From assembly GCF_044704955.1 (NCBI RefSeq), contig NC_092002.1:7564001-7628000 (forward strand): a stretch of DNA of 64,000 nucleotides, read 5' to 3'. The notes below the pieces were generated by a model that was not told where the DNA came from, ran no database searches, and worked only from the letters and a program-made list of their open reading frames with translations. Shown here in pieces: positions 948 to 58,282 of the stretch; position 1 is the first letter of the stretch, and the number at the start of each line of letters is the position of its first letter. The translations under genes were made by a program, and so were the position numbers. This DNA is from Pristiophorus japonicus (lineage: Eukaryota).

Positions 948-3900
948 GTGAGTGTAATCCATCTTCAACTGAAGCAGCATCTTTATTGCTTAACAAGTCC
1001 CCCGTGAGTTACCCGATCCACATGTGCTGTCTCTGAGCTCCCGGCTTGGTGGACTTAAAGGTCCTATCTTCTTCCAGGCTTCTTCATGCTTTGGGCTGAC
1101 TCCCAACTGCACAGTCACAAATAGGGCAGCAGAGTTCCCTGGTCTAGAGTCCAGCGACTTCCTCGTGATTTTGAGAGCTTGATAGGCAATTAGGAATCGT
1201 CTTTCTTTTATTTGTTCTCTGGATGTGGGCAAGGCCGGCATTTACTGCCCATCCCTAATTTCCCTTGAGAAGCTGGTGGTGGGCCGCCTTCTTGTAACGC
1301 TACTTAAGAGATCTGCAAAGTATATATCCTAACCCAATGTGAAAAATTCCAATTCTGAATTAAGAGATTTGAGCTATCCCATCTTATCGAGCAACAAAAA
1401 ACCCAATCATCCAATTGATATGGTTGGATTTGAACCCGGGTCAAAGTTAAAAGGACAATGCACTTGACTCTTGCACCACTGGAAAGACTAGTTATGTTGT
1501 TTAAAATATAATTGGATGCCACATGGCAGAGTGAATCTGCTAGAGGAATGAGCTTTGATGGGCCAGACATCCTTTTCTCATCTCTGAATTTTCTTATGCT
1601 TTTACAAACATTCTTGTCCAATCCCTCCGTGGCCTCATCCTTACCTCTCTCTATAACCTCCTCCAACCCTACAACCCTCCATGGTCTCTTCGCTTCTCCA
1701 ATTCTGACCTCTTGTGCAGCCCCCAATTTCCATCACTCCGCCATTGGCGGCTATGCCGACAGCTGATATTGCCCTCAGCACTGGAATACCTCCCTCAACC
1801 TCTCCGCCTATCTCTCCTTTTTTAAGACGTTCCTTAAAACTTACCTCCTTGACCAAACTTTTAGTCACCTGTCCTAATATTTCCTTAACTGTCAGCTGTG
1901 ACTCAGTGGGTTGCACACCCGCCTCTGAGTCAGAAGGTTGTGGGTTCAAATTCCACTCAAGGACTAAAGTACAGATGATCTGGTCATTATCACATTGCTG
2001 TTTGTGGGAGCTTGCTGTGCGTAAATTGGTTGCTGCGTTTCCCACATTACAACAGTGACTACACTCCAAAAGTACTTCATTGGTTTTGAGACATCCGGAG
2101 GTCATGAAAGGTGCTATGTAAATATAAGTCTTTTTCTATTTTTCTTATGTGGCTCGGTGTCAAATGTTGTTTGATAACACTCCTGTGAAGTGCCTTCGCA
2201 TGTTTTACTATGTTAATTTTACTACCTTCTACCGACGTAAACTATAGGTGATCCAAAACTCAGCAGCCCGTGTCCTAACTTGCACCGAGTCCCGCTCACT
2301 CATCACCCCCTGTGCTCGCTGACCTACATTGGCTCCCGGTTGAGCAACATCTCGATTTGAAAATTCTCATCCTTGTTTTCAAATCCCTCCATGGCCTCAC
2401 CTCTCCTTATCTCTGTAATCTCCTCCAGCCCCACAACCTCCCGAGATGTCTGCGCTCCTCTAATTCTGCGCTCTTGCGCATCCCTGATTATAACCGCTCC
2501 TTCAGCTGCCTGGGCCCCAAGCTGTGGAATTCCCTCCCTAAACCTCTCCGCCTCTCTTTCCTCCTTCAAGATGCTCCTTAAAACCTACCTCTTTGACAAA
2601 GCTTTTGGTCATCTGCCGTAATTTCTTCTTACTTGGCTCGGTGTCAAATTTATTTGTTTTGTCTTAAAACACTCCTGTGACGTGCCTTGGGATGTTTTAC
2701 TACGTTAAAGGTGCTATATAAATATACGTTGTTGTTGTAATGTACCTTCAACTCAAAAGTGGACAGCCAACCACGTTTTCTTTCCTAGAATATTGCTTAA
2801 ATGGAGAGGAGTCTACAAGCCCGGAGGAAGCGGCGCAGAGTAACACAGAGGAGATAAGCCCTCCCTCCACACCTCCAAGCATCAAGAAGATGAGGCTGAG
2901 GAACATCTGTCCCAAGCCAAGGAAAAAGAAACGGGTAGAAAAAACAGGTAGAGTATTCTGGGCAAGGACTCGGCGAGCTTTCTTTTGTGAACTCTGAGCT
3001 CATCAACGAGCCCCTCCATTGAACATTTTCCCATTTAATCATCCAGTGTCAGCAACAAGCACTCCCAACTGGGATAGCACAGAATAATGCTCCCTCCACA
3101 CAGTCTCATCTAGAACACCCAGGGCAGGTACAGCACGGGGTTAGATACAGAGTAAAACTCCCTCTGCGCTGTCCCATCAAACACTCCCAGGGCAGGTACA
3201 GCTCGAGTTAGATAAAGAATAAAGCTCCCTCTACACTGTCCCATCAAACACTCCCAGGGCAGGTACAGCACGGGGTTAGATATAGAGTAAAGCTCCCTCT
3301 ACACTGTCCCATCAAACACTCCAGGGCAGGTACAGCACAGGGTTAGATAGAGAGTAAAGCTCCCTCTGCACTGTCCCATCAAACACTCCCAGGGCAGGTA
3401 CAGCATGGGATTCGATACAGAGTAAAGCTCCCTGTACACTGTCCCATCACAGACTCCCAGCATGGGTTAGATACAGAGTAAAGCTCCCTCTACACTGTTC
3501 CATCAAACACTCCCAGGGCAGGTACAGTGTAAAGCTCCCTCTGCTCTGCTCCAAAAGTGTGTCTCAGCTGAACCTCAGCAGAGTGCCACCTATTACACCA
3601 GACAATTTTTCTCACTGGTTATTTTGTGGCGTGTCTGTCCAATATAGTTCTGAGTTAGTAGTTTTGCACTGTGGGCCCGTGCCCATTAGGAACTGAGTTG
3701 AGAATGCCCCAAATCCTTTCACCCGCAGCCAAATCCTTTGTCCCCAAATCCCAGAGCTGAACGTCTAGTGTCTTAATAGCAACAACCGTTATATACACCA
3801 TATTGTTTCCTCACAGTTGTATGGAAGGTAATCAGAGGAATGAAAGTAAAACATCTTTGACTGAGGTTTAGTATTAAAATATTGACCAATGTGTTAAAAA

Positions 3901-6900
3901 TTCACAATTTTAAGTTAAAAATGATCAGCCAATCCATAATGTCGACTGTAGACACTTTGTGTTTTGGATTGATGTACACATTGAAGGAGTTGAACATTTT
4001 GCTTCCATGGTACACGCAGAAGCATACATAATATACTTGAGCTATCAGCATAGCTATATGTGCTTAAGTATTCTCGATGATCAGGATATTTTGTTCGGGA
4101 CAGCTGTGGGTTTTGGGGGTAATTTGCCAGCACTGTTCAGTGGGGTGGAATTGGGTTGTGTTGTAACCCAGTTCCCTGACTGGGCATTATGCTGTATATT
4201 TGGCTGAAGGCAATTTTCTGTTAACCAAGTCTTGGGAACGCAAAGCCAAACCGACCTCTGCCTCCACACAAGTGTCAGCTGTGGCTCAGTGGGTAGCACA
4301 CTCGCCTCTGAGTCAGAAGGTCGTGGATCCAAGTCCCACTCCAGGAACTTGATCACATAAATCTAGGCTGACGCTCCCAGTGCAGTGCTGAGGGAACGCT
4401 GCACTGCCAGAGGTGCCGTCTTTCAGATGAGACGTTAAACCGAGGCTCCGTCTGCTCTCTCAGGTGGATGTAAAAGATCCCATGATACTATTTCGAAGAA
4501 GAGCAGGGGAGTTATCCCTCAATATTTATCCCTCAATCAACATCACTAAAACAGATTATCTGGTCATTGTCACATTGCTGTCTGCGGGAGCTTGCTGTAC
4601 GTAAGTCGGCTGGAGTGTTTCCCACATTACAACAGTGACTGCATTCCCAAAGTACTTCATTGGCTGTAAAATGCTTTGAGACATCTGGTGGTCGTGAAAG
4701 GCGCTATATAAATGCAAGTCTTTTCACTCTTCTGTGGGCCTCGGAGAGGCTGGTTCAGAAAGCAGTAAGCTATTCTTGTGCACACAAGCGGCCTCGACTG
4801 AGCCAGTGAAAGAAATGCAATAGTTTTCAGTTTAATTGGTAAGTTTGCTCATTTTTCCTCCTATCACAGAACGGCGACAGGTGCTGAAATCACGCCGCCG
4901 CCTTTACAATGAGCTGGCGCATTACGACTACTCGCGCACCGACAGCCAGCGGGAGGTTAAGCCAGCGTCCTTGGATACTTCGTCCTCCAGCTCCTGTTCA
5001 CAGGACAACACAGTCAGGTCCCAAGGCCGCACTCTGTTCCTTACCTTGCTGGAGGTGGCAGAGTCAAGAGACCTTGGAGGATCCAGCCTCAGCAGCACGG
5101 GTAACTACTTGAAAGAGGGTTTCAGCCCGAATGAGGGAAGCTATGCATTTCCTTTATCTGTTCTTTGAATTAAGATGTTATGGTGACGACCCAGTGTCAG
5201 CTTGGCTCAGTTGGTAGCACACTCATCTCTGAGTCAGAAAGCTGTAGATTGAAGTCCTACTGCAGGACTTGAGCACATAAATGAATATGTAGTGTAGTAC
5301 GCGGGGAGGTGTTGCAATGTCAGCGATGACGTGTTTTCGGATGCGACGTTAAGCCTGGATCCCAACTGCCTGGTTCGTTAGTTCAGGTGGACATTAATGA
5401 TCCCAGTGGCACTATTTGGATACAAGTAGGGAGTACATTCTCCCCTGAACCAACACCACCAAAAGCACATTAATTGGTCGTTCAATCTCAGTGGTGTCTG
5501 TGTGATCTTGCTGCTGCACAAAGCGGCTGCCACATTTGGCCATGTAACGGCGCTCACTTCAATTTGTCGGGCGGAAGCGGCGTGATTGAGGAGTAACTTA
5601 AGTTTCTGTCACTTGGGCAGGGAAGCACGAGACGAACAGTGACCCAAAGTGCTCTCCTGAAAACGATGAGAAAAAGATGAATGGCAGTCACGACTCCAGC
5701 TTGTACGACCCGCCGGTTGGCTCTCCGTATCCAAGGTAACAGACGCAAACCGTGGACTGCATCGGGTATTTTTTCCAGTTGTCCGCTCCGCGTTGAAGGT
5801 GTTGATTCACTTGGTACATTTCAGCCTGCAACAGTAGCCTTCTTGTACCCCCAAACCTCATCCATCACCCCTGTTCTCACTACATTGGCTCCCGGTTCGG
5901 CAACACCTCGCTTGTAAAATTCTCATCCTCGTGTTCAAATCCTTCCGTGGCCTCGCCTGTCTCTATCTCTGTAATGTTCTCCAGCCTCACCGTCCCCCCT
6001 GAGATCTCTGCGCTCCTCCAATTCTGGCCTCTTGAGCATCCCCAATTTTTACCGCTCCACCATTGGCAGCCGTGCCTTCAGCTGCCTCAGCCCTAAGCTC
6101 GGGAATTCCCTCCCTAAACCTCACTGTCTCTACCATCTCTCTCCTCTTTTAAGACGCTCCTTAAAACCTCATCATCATCATAGGCAGTCCCTCGAAATCG
6201 AGGAAGACTTGCTTCCACTCTAAAAGTGAGTTCTCAGGTGACTGAACAGTCCAATAGGGGAATTACAGTCCCTGTCACAGGTGGGACAGACAGTGGTTGA
6301 GGGAAAGGGAAGGTGGGACGGTTTGCCGCACACTCCTTCCGCTGCCTGTGCTTGCTTTCTGCATGCTCTCAGCAACGAGACTCAAGGTGCTCAGCGCCCT
6401 CCCGGATGCACTTCCTCCACTTAGGGCAGTCTTTGGATAGGGACTCCCACGTGCCGGTGGGGATGTTGCATTTTATCAGGGAGGCTTTGAGGGTGTCCTT
6501 GAAACATTTCCTCTGTCCACCTGGGGCTCACTTGCCATGTCGGAGTTCCGAGTAGAGCGCTTGCTTTGGCTTAAAACCTACCTCTTTGACCAAACTTATG
6601 GTCACCTATCCCAATATCTCCTTATGTGGCTCAGTGTCAAATTTTGTTCACTAACACTCCTGTGAAGCGCCTTGGAATGTTTTACTACGTTAAAGGTGCT
6701 ATATAAATGCAAGTTGATGTTATAATTGTCTGCAGGCTATTCCTTCATGGGAGCATTGGAACATTGCGCCCGACCCCGATTCTCTCGTCCCCTGCCACCC
6801 GCACAAACCCAATTGGGGAGCCTCTGTCCCTGCCATGCAAGATCAGTCAATTCAGCTCAGACTGGGGTTTCAAGCTGCCTTCGTCTGGTCTGTATTGGTC

Positions 6901-12900: not shown

Positions 12901-15900
12901 TTGGGGTGGGCTTCCCCACGCCTTCCCTGTGTCAAATCACCCCAACGTAACTCGACCTCCTGTAGGAGGGAGGCATTTGTCTCGTCCGAGAACCTCCTGG
13001 CCCTTTTGCGGCCTCCAATGTAATTCTCTCCCACCTCACTGCTCTCTCCTGCGTCAGTCTCCACAGCGTGCTGTGATGCCTCCTCTTCTCTCTCCATTAT
13101 AGGCCAAATTCGGTCAAATATGTGGCTGGTAACAGCTAATTTTTGCTTGCCTACTTGATGTGAAGCTCTAAAGTCTCCCTCCTTCCTCCCAAAGCAGCCA
13201 CACCACACCCAGCCACACCTTCAATCCCTCTGAGCTCTCTCTCTCTCTCTGTCTCCTCTTCTGCTCATGTCATGGTGACCGTTGACCTCCAGAATCGCGG
13301 GAATCGAGTGTTGCCATGCCGTTGCTAAGGACGGCCACACTTTACGGCAGAAGGTCAAAATAATTTTATGCTACCGCCCATTTGATATCGCTCGCGGTAA
13401 CGCCCATTTAAAAAAATGCAAACTAGGTGTTTTGAGAATGGGCGCTCTGAAAACTCTTTTTTAACTCCCACTCCCGAAATAATGCCCATTTTTCGGCGAT
13501 AAGCACAAAAGTAGAAGTTCTATCCCCAAGTCTCTGGAGTGGGACTTGAACCCACAGAGTCAGAGGCAAGGGTGACATGAGGAGAAAAGGGGGAAATATT
13601 AAGGAATAAAGTGGATAAATATAATTAATAAAGAAAAGCACTGCAAAAGATATTTGGGGTAAAATCTTTCTTTGCAGTATTCGCACTGACAGTGTGGAAG
13701 GGTTTAATAAGAAGGAAAATCTGCTGGAAATACATACAGATCAGTCAGAATCTGTGACGAGAAAAGACAGGTTATGATGCTCCAGGTGTAACACTTTATC
13801 AGAACAGTGATGACTGTTTTATTTATTGTTGAGGGGTTCGCACCATTGTTAAAATAACAGTGAAGTAGTTTGCTAAAATCATGTTGCATAACTGCACCCA
13901 AATTGGGATTTGTTGGCGCCCTCTAATTGACGTCATCCTTTCCTAAGGAGCAGCAGAGATTCATTCTCCCGTCAGTGGCTCTCTAACTACGTCGGGGCTG
14001 CAGGCGACACTAGGCTTGAGTCCTTCTCTCTTCTCCTCTCCAGGCCGCCACGTTCCATTTCTGCAGGACGGGAAGGAAAACCTGGCTCAAGGTAACGGGG
14101 CTGGGTCAACACGGTTTGTCAGACCCCTCGAAATGTTTGCCAAAACTGGCCGCTTTCCCAGCGCTAACCCCAGCTCTCGCTCTGATCAGCACAAAAAACA
14201 ACACTTGTCATTAAGAGTAGAAATTCTTCCACATAAGAAATAGGAGCAGGAGTAGGCCATTTGGTCTCTCGAGCCTGCGCCGCCATTCAATAAGATCATG
14301 GCTGATCTGATCCTGGCCTCAGCTCCACTTCCCCGCCCGCTCCCCATAACCCTTTATTCCCTTATCGCTCAAAAATCTGTCTATCTCCACCTTAAATATA
14401 TTCACTGACCCAGCCTCCACAGCTCTCTACCCCAGAGAGCTGAGGAGGCTGGGTCATTGAATATATTTAAGGTGGCGATAGACAGATTTTTGAACAATAG
14501 GGGAGTTGAGGGTTATGGGGAGCGGGCGGGGAAGTGGAGTTGAGGCCAATATCAGATCAGCCATGATCTTACTGAATGGTGGAGCAGGCTCGAGGGGCAG
14601 AATGGCCGACTCCTGCTCCTATTTCTTATGTTCGAAAGGGGCTTTTGCCTTTGGCTCTACTATGGTTCGGCTCGTGGGGAGTGGTACCAATGACTTGATC
14701 TCTGCCCTCACAGCGCTAAACCCAACTTCCTCAGTCCAAATGCAGAAACGTGCAGTTGAAACTAGCCACAAAAGTGGTCACAATCAGCAGCTTTCATTAC
14801 ACAAGTCAATAGCAAGCTCTCTGCACATCGGGATTTTACCATTCCACGTTATTTTCGCATGAAGTAAAACTGAGACCTGAAACTAACACTGGTTTGGCTA
14901 AAAGCTCCGATTAGCACATGCCCTAGAGTCTGTTCCCATTACACTATGAGTTTATCACTAGTGATCACACGCTATTGCATGCCCTAATTGACTTAGTCAG
15001 TGAATGCACTGGGTGATACAATACTCAGCCACACTGACCAAGAAAGTCCCAGGTGTAATGTATGCACCTGTGAATATTGGGTACTTGGCCTGGAGGGTGT
15101 TGCACGACCGGGGCTGTCCCATGCAATAGGTTTTTAAGTTGGTTTACGGACTCCCAGGCTGCATGCAATTTCTGCGGTCTGGAGGAACCTGTGTTCCGTG
15201 TGTATGTACAGTGTGTGAGGTTGCAGCTCCCTATTCCATAATTTGAAGGGGCTGCTCCTCGATTTCTGGTTGCACTTCAGTCCCACGCTCCTGATGTTTG
15301 GGCATCCTGTGCGGAGGGGAGTAGGCAGGTTGGAGGGCCACCCTGTAGGTCTGCTCTTGGGCATGGTCAAGGGGGCCATTAACCAGATTAGGCAGCGGGC
15401 GGTCGAGGGGGCCGTTCAGCCCGACTGCCTGCCTCTTCTGCGGCTACGTTCGCGCCAGGGTGTCCCTGGAGATGGAGCACGCGGTGTCCACCGGTACGCT
15501 CGCGGCCTTCCGCGAGAGGTAGGCACCGGTGGGACTGGGATGCATCATCACCCCCAGCAACTAAATTTTTATTTGATTTAAGTTTCCGTAAAGGTTTATT
15601 TTGAAATTTGTGGGTTCTAGTGCCCTTGTCAAAAGGGGGTGCTTGATTTTATGTTCTATTAAAATAGTTGTAGAACTGTTACCCTGATCTTTGGGCACCC
15701 GGTGCGGAGGGGAGTGGGCAGGTCGGAGGGCCTCCTCGTTGGACTGCTCCTGGGCCTGGCCACAGTGGCCATTAACTGGACCAGGCAGCGGGCTGTCGAG
15801 GGGGTCGTTCAGTCTGACTGCCTGCCTATCTTCCGCGGTTATGTTCGCGCCAGGGTGTCCCTGGAGATGGAGCATGCAGTGTCCACCGGTACGCTTGCGG

Positions 15901-18900
15901 CTTTCCGCGGGAGGTGGGCACCCGAAGGACTGGGGTGCATAATTTCAACAGGGAACAACATTTTAATTGAATTTGATTTGACAAAATTCCCTTTAATGTT
16001 TAATTGTTAATTTGTGGGTTTTGGTGTCCTTAAAAAAAAAAGGGGGCACTTGATTTAAAAGCTTTACCAAAATAGGTATAGAGCTGTTTCATTGTGAGTG
16101 GCGTAGCCAGTCACGTGATGTTCAGAAGACTCAATGAATCCTCAGCGAGTTGGGTCTAGGTCATCCACGATGAGGTATGCAGTTGTGAGCCTGGTGGATG
16201 AACCGGTAATGTGTAGTGTGATTGTTAAACCTTTGTTAATAAACCAACTAGTTGTTAACAGCAATGTGTTGCTATGAATTCTTAAGCAAAGAACCCATGA
16301 AGCAAATACATTACATTATACCAGGTTCAATCCACTGTGCTGAGCTAGCTGATGGGAGGCAGGTGGCTTGCAGTTTTTTTGGAGGGGCTGGGGGGGTGGG
16401 GGCGCAACAAGTGGCCTCAGCACCTTGGCCAAGAGATAAAGAGGAAAACAAAATATTAGCAAAGGGTCTCACACCAGCAACCTTTTCCCACAAGGTGCAT
16501 GCATCCGCATATCGCGTAAGGTCAGGATTGGGCATGAATGCTCACATGGTCAAATAGCCTGCTGACACTCGAGGTTAGATTTTCCCCCATTTTACCACTT
16601 GTTTTCAGGTGGAACCGGGTCGACTAGAGGAGGATCATCAGGCCTGGGGACCGAAATTGCCCCTTTCTTTCAGAGCCGTGACCGCCTCTTTCGGTAATGA
16701 CTCTCCGCCTCGTCGGTGCAGAGTAAGGGTCATTTTGTAAATTGCCCAATCTGGGTTTTGCAGCGGTAATCACTACCTCGCCGCCCTTGCTCCCGCTCCG
16801 TCGGTCATGTGCGGACCCCCCCCCCCCCCCCCCATCGACCGGCGGCAACCCCCTTTCCGCGCCACGCAGGAGCAGATCATCCCCCGGCGGATGGCATTTT
16901 ATTTTATTTGGTGGCCGACTGCCAGGTCAGCCCGACAATGGTGCCCAGCAGTTCAGCCGGGCCACCAACAGGCAGGCCGGCACCCCCTCTCGGGTGCCAG
17001 GCCGCTGGCCCGGCCGAAACCTTCCCCGGTGGCCCAGTGGACCTAACTCCACCCCGTGCCGAGTTCACAGCGGCGCTCCCCTTTAACGGAAGGGGAGGGA
17101 CGTTGGGACATCATCAGCGTGGCAGACTCGACCGAATGCCACTTCCGCCCCACACCCGCCTGGATAACCTTCCCCCACCCCCACTGGAAAAAAATATTGT
17201 AAAACCTGAATTTCTGTCGGATCCGTGCCCCATGGATTGGTGAGTGTGCCCCGTTTGGGGTGGGCCTCAATTTCGACCCCCTGGTGTTTTTCCTCCAGCA
17301 CTTCACCGGTGGAATGATGACAGATGCTGAATACGCTCTTGACTTTTTCCTTTTAAATCTATTTTTTCTCTCTCAGGAGATGGGAAAGGCTGACATTTCT
17401 TGCCCTGAGAAGGTGGTGGTACTCAGCCTTCTGGAATTGCTGCATTTCTTGTGGCAACGGTGTTCCCACAGTGGGATTGGCTAGGGGATTGCAGGATTTG
17501 GACCCTGTTGTGTATGAGTGTTACAAGTTGCTCATAGCTCTTGGTGGTTGTCTTCTCCGGGGCTAGTAAGTCCCTGACGAGACCGTACATGGTGGGCCCA
17601 TAACTGCTAAGCAGGATGGCCCTGCGTTTGTTCGATAGTGTAGCCGGTGTGTCCCCGTCCAGATCGTTGGCTACAAAGAAATGTTCCAATCTTTCCACCA
17701 AAGCTTCCCTATCTTCCCCCTCTGTAAATTGCTGGAAGTTGCTGAGGTTAGACATGTTGAGTGTGTAGTTCGTGACCTCCTGTGCTTGAGGCTGGCCTCG
17801 TCCGTTTCCCCTCCCTCACACACAAACCAAGTGGGTGTCACTGTTGTGGGATCCCTCGGGGAGGTAGCCACAGCACCAGTGGGTGGTGTGTATACACTGT
17901 GATGTGGGTAGTTGTGGGGTGGTGTGCAGGGCCACAAGACTGGGTGGGCTCCTTGTCCACCAATTGGGATGAGGGTCAGGTCATCCCAGAGTTTGCCAGG
18001 GAAACTGGAGGGTATTGGCCTCGTACGTTTCCCCTTTGCACGCGTGGGTTCGGATCTCATCCTCGTCGCCAGTTGTAGAGTATGTAGGCACCTTTAGTAA
18101 TTACTCCACGAGGCAGGTATGATACTTAAACTGTGAAGACCCGTAGTCCTTTATTTGCAGTTCCTGAGTGACAACAACAAGCTGTGAGTTCCCTTTTATA
18201 CTGGGTTACCTGCCGTGGGCAGGCAACCCCTAGGTCTCCAGCAGCAGCACCCTCTGGTGTACCGGTAAGTTGTGTGCAGTATAAGGATACATTCAATGTG
18301 GCATAAGTGTTATAGACATCACACAGTAAACAGGCACGCATACACAACAGACCCAACCTTGCTAAGAAGACAGAGGGGGTACTTAAACTTTAAATAGGCT
18401 GCAAACACCGTGCAGCTGATCAACGCACCGATTTAAAAAAAAAAAAGAATTGTCAAGTTCTTCATCTACTCTGGAGGCACCCAGCCATGCACCAGTACTG
18501 CAGGCGCTCGAAGCTGACAGCCTCGATACTACTCCCTCACTCACAGATGGGCTTCCCAGTAGGTTTCATCTGTGGCTCAGTTGGTAGTACTCTCACCTCT
18601 GAGTCAGTAAGTTGCGGGTTCAAGTCCCAGAGACGTGAGCACATAATCTAGGCTGCGTGCGTACACTCAGAGTTGTTGTGATCGGTGATATCTGTTTCTT
18701 TTTGTTCATCATCATCATCATAGGCAGTCCCTCGGAATCGAGGAAGACTTGCTTCCACTCTTAAAGATGAGTCCTTAGTGGTACACTCACTATAAAGGAT
18801 GAAACTGAGTACTGTGTACAATGAGCAAGTATGACCTTAGCTCCTTTATTAAGACTCCAGAGTGCAGCTATCTCGTGGGTGGCCTGCTTATATACCGTGC

Positions 18901-24900: not shown

Positions 24901-27900
24901 AGGCCGAAGTGAGGTCCACCTTGGTGAACAGCTTGCCGCCTGCCAGCGTGGCAAAAAGATCCTCCGCTCTCGGAAGCGGGTATTGGTCTTGTAGTGACAC
25001 TCGGTTGATGATGGCCTTGTAGTCGCCATAGATCCTGACCGAGCCATCCGTTTTTAGGACGGGGCCAATGGTGTTTGCCCAGTCGCTGAATTCAACGGGC
25101 GAAATTATGCCCTCTCTTAGCAACCTGTCCAGCTCACTCACAATTTTCTCCAGCATCACATACGGCACAGCTCTGGCTTTATGGTGCACTGGTCTGGCGT
25201 CCGGGGTGATGCGCATCACTACTTTGGTACCTTTGAAAGTCCCGACACCAGTTTGAAATAGTGACTCAAACTTTTGTAGGACCTGTGAGCATGAACTTCG
25301 CTCCACAGATGAAATGGCGTGCACATCCCCCCCTTTTCCAGTTCATCTCGGCTAGCCAGCTCCTCCCCAAAAGCGCGGGACCATTTCCCAGGACAATCCA
25401 GAGTGGCAGCCGGTTCTCTGATCCATTATGTGTGACCACCAACATTGCACTGCATAGCACTGGGATTTTCTCTTTGGTGTACGTCCGTAATTGCGTGTCA
25501 ATGCATTCTAGTTTGGGTCTGCTATGAGTGGCCATAGTTTCTCGAATTGTTGGACACTCATAAATGACTGGCTGGCTCCTGTGTCCAGCTCCATGTGTAC
25601 CGGGGTGCCGTTTAACAGTACTCTCATCATCATAGGTGGCGTCTTTGTGTATGAGCTGTGGATGTTTGCCTGAACCCGCTGAACTTCAGCGTCCATTGCT
25701 GTGTCCCAAGCATAACCCTGCCTTGCAGACCCCTCTTGTGGTTCATCCGCTTCGTAAACCAGCCTTGCTGCGGGCTTCCTGCACATTCTGGCTAAATGTC
25801 CACTGAAGTTACAATTTCTGCAGATAAATTGTTGAAACCTGCAGGTTTTCGCAGCATGTCTGCCCCCGCACCTCCATCATGAGCTGAGATTGTTGTGAAC
25901 AAAAGAGCTGTTACCAGGCATTCCTCTCCGATTATCTCTGATTACTCTTGAGCACTCTGTTTGTGGGTGTCAATGGTCCCATCCTGGGACGTATTGTCCC
26001 TTGTGATGGTGTAAATGTCTGTTCAACCTGCCATTGTCTCTGTTGAGGACCCACCCTAGAGTCTGTTACTGCCTGGTTGGTGCCGAATTGCCCTTGCCTG
26101 CCTGCGGGGTTTTGAGTCGCGTTTACCATGTTAACTCCCTGCTCCATCGCCACGTTGGGAGCAGAGTTGCGCGCGTATATGATCTTGGTTTCCTCCTCCA
26201 CCGCCATGAAGGTTTGAGCCATCAATGCCGCTTCTTCCAAGGTCAAGTCCTTGGTCTCAATTAGCTTCCTAAAAATCCCGGCATGACCAATGCCCAATGA
26301 AGAAATCCCGTAACATCTCCCCTCTGCAGGTGACTGCGAACTTAGAGGCTGGCCAAGCGCCGAAGGTCCGCAACAAAGTCTGGTATGCTCTGCCCTTCCC
26401 GATGTCAGTGCGTATAGAATCGGTGTCGGGCCATGTGTATACTACTCGCCGGTTTGAGGTACTCACCGATCAGTTTGCTGAGCTCCTCAAAGGTCTTCTC
26501 TGCCGGCTTCTCGGGTGCGAGCAGGTCTTTCTTCAGCGCGTACGTCTTAGGTCTACAGCTGGTCAGTAGATGCGCCCTTCGCTTGTCAGCCGCTGCCGCT
26601 CCCAGCCAGTCCTTTGTGACAAAGCTCTGCTGGAGCCTCAACGAAATCGTCCCAGTCCTCACCAACACAGTACCGTTCCTCTGTGCTACTGGTGGCCATT
26701 CTCGTGAGTCGTTGATTCCCGTTTCTCGTCGCCAAATGTTGTGTCCTTAGACTCTACTGTAAATCAACACAAGGCACATACTGGAGACAAGGTCACTCTG
26801 ACCTGTACCTTTATTCAGGACCAAGTAGTGATGACCCTGCATGAGACCTCCCTTTTATATACCTGGATGACCAGGTGAGGAGTGTCTCCCACAAGTTCAC
26901 CCCCTGTGGTCAAGGTGTGCATTTCTTAGGTGTATACAGTGTACAGTGTTACATGAAGGTTACAGTTAAATGAAGGTTACATACATGGCTCTCTTGATGT
27001 TGAATTAGGGAGAGAAGTACAAATATCTAATTGTGACAATTCCAGCCTTAGAATCGTAGAATCTTACAGCACAGGATGAGGTCGTTTAGCCCACTAGGCC
27101 CATGCCAGCTCTTTTGAAAGAGCTATCCAATTAGTCCCACTCATTCCCCACAGCCCTGCAACATTTTTCCTTTTTAAGCACATATCCACATCCTTTTTGA
27201 AAGTTACTGTTGAATCTGCTTCCATCGCCCTTTCAGGCAGCTTCTTCCAGATCACAACAACTCGCTGCGTAAAGAAAGTCTCCTCATCTCCCTCTTGGTA
27301 CCTTTTGCCAATATCTTCAATCTCTGTCCTCCAGTTATCGACTCTCCTGCCAGTGGAAACAGTTTCTCCCTACCTACTCCGTCAAAACTTTCACAATTTT
27401 GAACACCTCTATTAAATCTCCCCTTAGCCTTCTCTGCTCTAAAGGAAATAATCCCATCTTCTCCAGTCTCTTCACATAACTGAAGTCACTCATCCCTAAT
27501 ACCATCCTAGTAAATCTTCCTCCACACCCTCACCAAGACCTTCCCACCCTTCCTAAAGTATGATGCCCAGAATTGGACACAATACTCCAGCTGAGGCTTA
27601 ACCAGTGATTTATAAAGGTCTTACATTTCGCTCAGTGATTTATGGAGGTTTAGCATAACTACCAGTGATTTATAAAGGTATTGCATAACTACTAGTGATT
27701 TATAAAGGTGTCGCATAACTACCAGTGATTTATGGAGGTTTAACATGGTTACCAGTGATTTATGAAGGTTTAACATAGTTACCAGTGATTTATGGAGGTT
27801 TAACATAACTTAGCGTCTCGTCTGTTGAAGGGAGAGTTGTGCATTGGAGTGTAGCTGGTTATCTGACTCCCTGACTGTCATCTCCAGGACAGCGATGAAA

Positions 27901-42281: not shown

Positions 42282-42546
42282 TGTAATGTAATGAACCATG
42301 TGAGTGTGCTCACAGGGTTATAGAGCTGATGAGCTGTGAGTGGCTTAGCCAGTCATGTGTTATTCACAAGACTCAATAAAACCCCAGCCAGTTGGGTTCA
42401 GGAGATCCATGATGAGGCATGTGGTTGTGAGCTCGGTGGATGAACTGGTAATGTGTAGTGTGATGGTTAAACCTTTGCTAATAAATCAACGAGTTCTTAA
42501 TAACAATGTATTGCTATGAATTCTTAAGCAAAGAACTCATGAAACA
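42282..42546. mobile_element. Solo LTR, same family as 15054-16320, no Tx1 insertion
   Basis: tgtaatg start; gagtggcttagccagtca…aataaaacccc…gctatgaattcttaagcaaagaac. Confidence 0.75.
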
Positions 42547-57073: not shown

Positions 57074-57332
57074 TCGTAGTGTATGCACCTGTGAGCATGC
57101 GCAAAGGGGAGTGGCTCAGCCAGTCACGTGATGTTCACAAGAATCAATAAAACCCCGGCCAGTTGGGTTCGGGGGATCCACGATGGGGCAGGTGGTTGTG
57201 AGCCTGGTGGATGAGCTGGTAATGTGTAGTGTGATTGTTAAACCTTTTGCTAATAAACCAACTAGTTCTTAATAATAGCAATGTGTTGCTATGAATTCTT
57301 AAGCAAAGAACCCTTTGAAGCAAATACATTAC
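57074..57332. mobile_element. Solo LTR (15054 family) inside a CR1 tail, TSD CCAGC
   Basis: ccagc at 57069-57073 and 57333-57337; LTR body as at 16080-16315. Confidence 0.8.
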
Positions 57333-58066: not shown

Positions 58067-58282
58067 NNNNNNNNNNNNNNNNNNNNNNNNNNNNNNNNNN
58101 NNNNNNNNNNNNNNNNNNNNNNNNNNNNNNNNNNNNNNNNNNNNNNNNNNNNNNNNNNNNNNNNNNNNNNNNNNNNNNNNNNNNNNNNNNNNNNNNNNNN
58201 NNNNNNNNNNNNNNNNNNNNNNNNNNNNNNNNNNNNNNNNNNNNNNNNNNNNNNNNNNNNNNNNNNNNNNNNNNNNNNNNNN
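58067..58282. other. Assembly gap (216 N)
   Basis: Run of n. Confidence 0.99.

Follow-up and report, generated by a model that had tools for sequence, protein, structure and literature searches.

Ordered stacks of a Tx1-clade retrotransposon at a preferred site within a long terminal repeat of Pristiophorus japonicus

The window analysed here is a stretch of 64,000 nucleotides from Pristiophorus japonicus (assembly GCF_044704955.1, contig NC_092002.1, positions 7,564,001 to 7,628,000 of the forward strand). It contains a solo long terminal repeat (LTR) interrupted by two 5'-truncated copies of a long interspersed nuclear element (LINE) of the Tx1 clade. An earlier note, made from the letters alone, had proposed that this LINE targets one fixed site in the LTR, and the genome-wide follow-up described below concerns that site, the stacks of copies found on it, and a second site used by the youngest copies.

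The interrupted LTR and its occupants

The earlier note had described a solo LTR flanked by CCAGG and holding two LINE 3' ends, and this structure was recovered in full. The features are as follows (TSD, target-site duplication; UTR, untranslated region):

15049-15053, + strand: left 5-bp TSD CCAGG of the solo LTR
15054-15077, + strand: first 24 bases of the solo LTR, apparently Gypsy-type; after them, a deletion has removed 10 bases of the LTR and the 14-bp duplication on the left
about 15076-15667, + strand: Tx1 LINE copy a, 5'-truncated, with the older AAAATAG-type end; tblastn to YTX2_XENLA, E 1.6e-14
15668-15681, + strand: 14-bp TSD separating copies a and b (the 14-base motif)
about 15682-16075, + strand: Tx1 LINE copy b, 5'-truncated, with another 3' UTR and an AAAATAG-type end; tblastn to YTX2_XENLA, E 5.7e-07
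16076-16089, + strand: right copy of the 14-bp target site (LTR positions 35-48)
16090-16320, + strand: rest of the solo LTR up to its natural 3' end
16321-16325, + strand: right 5-bp TSD CCAGG of the solo LTR
42284-42546, + strand: empty copy of the same LTR, with the target site at 42318-42331 (2 mismatches)
57080-57332 (start approximate), + strand: empty copy of the same LTR, entirely without the target site

The LTR at 15054-16320 has the termini TGTAATGT...ACATTA(C/T)A, and the motifs at 15668-15681 and 16076-16089 carry 2 and 3 mismatches, respectively, against the usual 14-mer. As the note had claimed, the motif that follows each copy also stands in the uninterrupted LTR at 42318-42331. 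The LTR is indeed split near its start; the insertion point, which had been put at about 25 bp, belongs at LTR positions 35-48, as placed by comparison of 30 empty LTRs, and the joint carries a 24-bp deletion that took away the left 14-bp duplication along with 10 bases of the LTR and left a 2-base overlap. The 3' ends had been called A-rich, and they were found to possess a fixed terminus, AAAA(T/G)AG(T), instead of a poly(A) tail; AAAATAG ends are referred to as T-type and AAAAGAG ends as G-type. In the coordinates of a 7,166-base full-length copy, copy a starts at 6443 and copy b at 6652, and the two are 78% alike over 406 aligned columns with different 3' UTRs, which bears out the view that they are independent insertions. 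Both carry T-type ends, so that the end type does not order them by age. A short interspersed element (SINE) whose head would contain the LTR was not recovered: a genome search with the left flank, which misses diverged repeats, returned only the self match, and neither LTR flank matched anything else within 1.92 Mb of fetched loci. A word spanning the right CCAGG presumably resembles a B box. The stretch of N at 58067-58282 lies outside the interrupted LTR.

Full-length copies of the LINE are about 7.2 kb long, with open reading frames for ORF1 (702 aa) and ORF2 (about 1,299 aa), the latter containing an endonuclease, a reverse transcriptase (RT) and a zinc motif. ORF2 of copy L203 matched the Pfam domains Exo_endo_phos, RVT_1 and, below the cut-off, zf-RVT; ORF1 gave no Pfam match at 0.001, and part of ORF1 in L214 gave a weak zf-CCHC match below the cut-off. 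The endonuclease matches the L1-EN/LTx structures. ORF2 is 49% identical along its full length to Xenopus Tx1 ORF2 (YTX2_XENLA), to which the full-length LTR-site copies L252, L259 and L270 also align along ORF2. In a midpoint-rooted protein tree of 16 rows with one named reference, the proteins of LTR-site copies and of copies at the second site (the CR1 site, below) group with P0004 (YTX2_XENLA) and turtle P0005 at a support of 97 in the Shimodaira-Hasegawa-like approximate likelihood ratio test (SH-aLRT). The phylogenetic check named in the earlier note thus led to Tx1L, and by domain content and protein tree the LINE is assigned to the Tx1 clade.

The host element has TG...CA LTRs and 5-bp duplications. 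Its internal frames contain RT_RNaseH in L361, RVT_1 in L363 and a weak rve_3 in L364, and the stretch homologous to the rve_3 region comes after RNase H in L361, giving the order RT, RNase H, then integrase. Judged from this domain order and from motifs, the host LTR would be of the Ty3/Gypsy type. A different and decayed Gypsy-type element lies at L151:100-6700 inside a Tx1 copy within a stack; it was considered as the target and ruled out, as its LTR differs. At L014:1712-1989, two LTR copies abut in opposite orientation.

Site preference, stack order and 5' joints

Insertion at the LTR site was examined with a query of LINE sequence only, free of the target. From the 4,207 candidates that it yielded, 40 were given scores and the best 30 were retrieved; among these 30, the sequence runs on into the motif and the LTR at 24 of 29 non-self loci. 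To avoid best-hit bias, a 3' UTR pattern with 5,639 matches was also used, and 65 of its first 66 matches on C1 (0-92 Mb) were read; the motif, within 3 mismatches, follows 42 of these 65 consecutive 3' ends. Both counts show the enrichment of the LTR motif downstream of the LINE that the earlier note had predicted. Genome-wide, the exact joint of LINE end and LTR site occurs 9,018 times. Exact sites with LTR continuation number 4,603, preceded by a LINE end in 2,464 (filled) and by the LTR's own flank in 898 (empty), and 19 of 30 exact LTR sites that were read are filled. If LTRs were everywhere as dense as in the window, at three per 64 kb, simple arithmetic would still put the chance of striking that one position below 1 in 20,000. 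No size is claimed for the LTR family, because a background of 132 kb held 0 copies.

The motif is present on both sides of LTR-site insertions, and in 29 of the 30 complete loci the duplication is 14-16 bp long, the 14 bases being extended by 0-2. Truncation points, LTR flanks and the 5-bp LTR duplications all vary from locus to locus, and two elements with paired LTRs are filled at the 5' LTR but empty at the 3' LTR. Of the 59 filled loci that were parsed, 27 gave no left site within 5 kb, and several of these 27 show an LTR start with a damaged site; two left-site assignments by the parser were false. None of the three outcomes that the note had listed against its own proposal was encountered: the 3' flanks are not random, the motif is not confined to the LINE's 3' UTR, since it flanks insertions on both sides and stands in empty LTRs, and the window copies, unlike each other in start and sequence, are not a local tandem duplication.

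Copies off the LTR site have 14-base duplications of their own, clear in 15 of 34 examined. In 15 of these 15 a TG follows the first base, and in 9 of the 15 the first T after the LINE terminus comes from the element. Most of the 23 off-site older ends are followed by a TTGT-like sequence. Because these remaining ends are dispersed, the LTR site is a preference of the lineage and not an exclusive target, with about a third of copies elsewhere. By the rule of Kojima (2015, PMC4494074), a Tx1 family counts as target-specific if more than 20% of its flanks fall in one repeat; here the share is 42 of 65, together with a duplication of fixed length. At loci L029 and L030, stacked copies surround their own duplications outside the LTR, so off-target sites are reused too.

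Many filled LTRs hold more than one copy. Among the first 100 filled LTRs listed on C1, 60 were fetched and 59 parsed, and 24 have at least two 3' joints. G-type ends lie upstream of T-type ends in a ratio of 38:1, and the order is strict in 10 of 11 mixed stacks. In a 74-row tree, AAAATAG copies form the oldest grade, with longer branches, and AAAAGAG copies are younger; the upstream copy is nearer to outside copies in 8 of 10 stacks (2 marginal). The stacks are therefore ordered, with younger copies upstream, which indicates that new copies enter at the upstream duplicate. Exact full-length 5' joints on the LTR motif number 99, and of 30 that were read, 5 come after LTR flank and 25 after another copy.

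Neighbours within a stack share their 5' breakpoints and yet are not duplicates of each other. The breakpoint is common, within 2 bases, in 24 of 28 adjacent mappable pairs, as against 11 of 2,297 pairs in a cross-locus control, 8 of these 11 coming from one pair of loci. In ORF2, 19 of the 24 pairs are 81-92% alike, close to controls, and their UTRs are different. The first 10 bases of neighbours match at 0.92 versus 0.76 in controls, and the excess of matches is found mainly within the first tens of bases. In 27 of the 28 pairs, the upstream copy is as long as its neighbour or shorter. Five arrays at the CR1 site again show breakpoints common to neighbours, which are 96.8-98.7% alike versus 97.8 +/- 0.6% across loci, have their first mismatch at 13-66 bases, and do not pair in the tree. 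Two unrelated loci, L301 and L312, have a common breakpoint at 6202, possibly a truncation hot spot.

The youngest subfamily at the CR1 site

The youngest subfamily, nested in the LTR-targeting lineage, occupies a different 14-bp site, located in another LINE. It came to light in copies closest to a G-type RT query, which lie not in the LTR but antisense in this second host, at a 14-base duplicated site. The second host, which we take to be a CR1-type LINE, has its RT on the opposite strand beside the site, and among proteins this RT is nearest to unnamed RTs from cartilaginous fish, turtles and birds. Exact joints at the CR1 site number 15,691, and the end is G-type in 100 of 100 of those listed. 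When 60 young 3' ends were chosen by UTR pattern, 52 were on the CR1 site (40 called by list overlap and 12 by reading) and 0 on the LTR site, and 6 of the 8 off the CR1 site have a TTTC start; of the older ends, 0 of 65 are on the CR1 site. In the tree, the CR1-site copies have the shortest branches and fall inside the G-type grade of LTR-site copies, where they form two groups that are not united. At their 5' end, the young copies agree with the LTR 14-mer in 11 of 14 bases.

The endonucleases of LTR-site copies and young CR1-site copies differ at 8 positions by majority. The changes at positions 65, 67, 163 and 201 are shared with most or all of three older CR1-site copies, and a search for an endonuclease change unique to the youngest subfamily found none. 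By structure match, position 201 lies just past the hairpin loop, and this loop is described as tuning nicking in the L1 endonuclease (PMC1950540). A switch of target based on the protein would be the preferred reading, because the reuse of upstream duplicates argues against long RNA pairing.

A full-length tandem copy with a 5' end like that of the CR1 subfamily (L365:3606 and L212) occupies a third site, where the duplication is shorter (TCTGTGG); this is possibly an intermediate target, and its flank is presumably CR1-like. Inside a CR1-site stack, L428 (C1:11274630-11275080) carries, behind part of the site, a short piece that we take to resemble the 5' arm of a tRNA and that may be a host RNA which the LINE copied in. 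Nine exact CR1-site joints at C1:9710120-9765208, most of them about 7.2 kb apart, represent a long head-to-tail array of full-length copies. Elsewhere in the window, two 198-base arms of a dispersed repeat form an inverted pair at 14231-14631, 90% alike with 5 bases between them, and tandem arrays of about 67-base and 30-base units lie at 3072-3581 and 27601-27840, respectively.

Interpretation and known systems

Based on these findings, a model is proposed to which we give a probability of roughly 0.8: a Tx1-clade lineage builds ordered stacks at a single preferred 14-bp site of a Gypsy-type LTR, likely through nicking of the site by its endonuclease, duplication of the site on each insertion, and reuse of the duplicate that lies upstream. 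Target-primed reverse transcription would start at a bottom-strand nick just before a TG, and recognition of the sequence upstream of the nick would favour the upstream duplicate. The new cDNA, on reaching the resident's truncation point, could pair with the resident's initial bases on their top strand; priming of the second strand at these bases would then let the newcomer inherit the joint. In the window, copy a may have run past the breakpoint of copy b and been joined with the 24-bp deletion, or copy a may have come first, with the deletion, copy b then using the only remaining site. Even odds are given to a wider reading, in which the lineage filled most intact LTR sites and then moved to the unrelated CR1 site with almost the same endonuclease, each stack being a dated record in which newcomers borrow the resident's 5' joint. 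This switch might have been brought about by the combined effect of a few changes in the endonuclease. If true, such neighbour-templated joining would let full-length residents seed full-length arrays.

Several points weigh against these proposals. Of 65 LINE 3' ends, 23 lie off the LTR site, and the 73% occupancy covers only LTRs with a perfect site. In the stacks, L300 violates the G-before-T order, and the longer copy is upstream in L312 and in the window. Of the 24 pairs with a shared breakpoint, 2 show by an identity of 99-100% that duplication or conversion takes place as well, 2 are misaligned, and 1 could not be scored; the five CR1-site arrays, picked for their even spacing, do not sample such arrays at random. 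On the midpoint-rooted tree, poorly resolved in that part, the CR1-site copies require 2 changes, and no endonuclease difference is fixed, each of the 8 being seen in 6-26% of LTR-site copies. Finally, most locus samples come from C1, the exceptions being the target-free 3'-end query, the G-type RT query, the full-length 5'-joint pattern and the regions fetched from these.

Another possibility is that targeting is real but the shared 5' ends came about only once the copies were in place, through unequal exchange or gene conversion within the stack. Exchange explains the two nearly identical pairs, and short perfect unit repeats exist in L300 and L031; beyond the first tens of bases, however, neighbours are as different as unrelated copies, their UTR types differ and follow a strict age order, and the tree does not group them together, which makes this origin unlikely. 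Somewhat less credence still is given to an address held mainly in RNA, in which read-through transcripts would pair with the nicked strand and a single copy landed in CR1 would have re-addressed its descendants without an endonuclease change. The off-target ends, which mirror the main site of each subfamily in their TTGT-like (older) and TTTC (young) sequences, would fit it, as would the element-derived first T in 9 of 15 loci and the lack of a fixed endonuclease difference, and an R2 lineage with target-derived sequence in its 3' UTR is a loose precedent (as described in PMC5035012). The best pairing for a read-through tail would nevertheless be expected at the downstream duplicate, which is followed by more LTR sequence, whereas newcomers go upstream; the TG present in the DNA of off-target sites fits a nick preference equally well; and the Tx1L endonuclease is reported to nick its target almost exclusively in vitro (PMC1950540).

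Two explanations would dispense with targeting. An LTR already carrying the LINE might have been amplified as a composite, or LINE transcripts might have carried an LTR tail by 3' transduction, as the filled loci lacking a left site would allow, although several of these have a damaged site. This is very improbable, being contradicted by the paired LTRs that differ in occupancy and by truncation points, LINE subtypes and 5-bp LTR duplications that differ by locus, and most filled LTRs reach their natural 3' end. That the motif is the LINE's own 3' UTR and the window copies a tandem duplication is effectively refuted: although the element does supply the motif's initial T, the motif stands in 898 empty LTRs and 5' of insertions, other duplicated sequence replaces it at off-target loci, and the window copies are too dissimilar, with different starts.

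LINE 5'-end joining and target change of AP-type endonucleases are open questions. Thousands of natural insertions here show the position of the 5' joint when a homologous copy adjoins, and two endonuclease versions, about eight majority positions apart, accompany two unrelated targets. Both questions thereby become testable at the bench, with relevance to retrotransposon-based gene insertion, and the system is likely a natural record of how such elements complete insertion and change target. In the open-access literature, no report was found of Tx1 elements in Gypsy LTRs or in CR1, of an LTR-to-CR1 switch, of Tx1 targeting in sharks, of inherited truncation points, or of neighbour-templated joining.

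The earlier note knew of no described target of this kind, yet as a class of target LTR retrotransposons are not new for the clade. The crocodilian Tx1 families Tx1-8_Crp and Tx1-4_AMi are preferentially found in specific LTR retrotransposons, as is the LINE described here, and their sister group, Tx1-Mar and SINEU-3, targets a Mariner with tandem copies around the duplication (Kojima 2015, PMC4494074). For these LTR-targeting crocodilian families, the main text names neither the LTR type nor the site, and it is silent on occupancy, on the order of stacks and on shared breakpoints (PMC4494074). Tx1L of Xenopus laevis targets Tx1D (PMC4494074). Like Tx1L (P0004), to which it is 49% identical in ORF2, the present LINE uses one site in another mobile element; unlike it, the targets are apparently a Gypsy-type LTR and then a CR1-type LINE instead of a DNA transposon, and about a third of the older copies are dispersed. 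R1 is an APE-type LINE, and the R2 endonuclease is of a different class. For Drosophila R1 arrays, whose target is the 28S ribosomal DNA, growth by insertion into the duplicate at the resident's 5' end was proposed, and the 14-bp duplication, the upstream growth and the short pairings proposed to prime the second strand are all similar to the present case; inheritance of the resident's truncation point is not reported for R1 in that account (Stage and Eickbush 2009, PMC2718515). R2 lineages with changed junctions also changed or lost target specificity within a lineage, but by shifts within 28S or by loss, whereas here copies about 90% alike jump between unrelated repeats (Kojima, Seto and Fujiwara 2016, as described in PMC5035012). 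In conclusion, the preference for an LTR, taken by itself, adds a further case to a habit already known, and the inherited joints and the dated target switch would go further.

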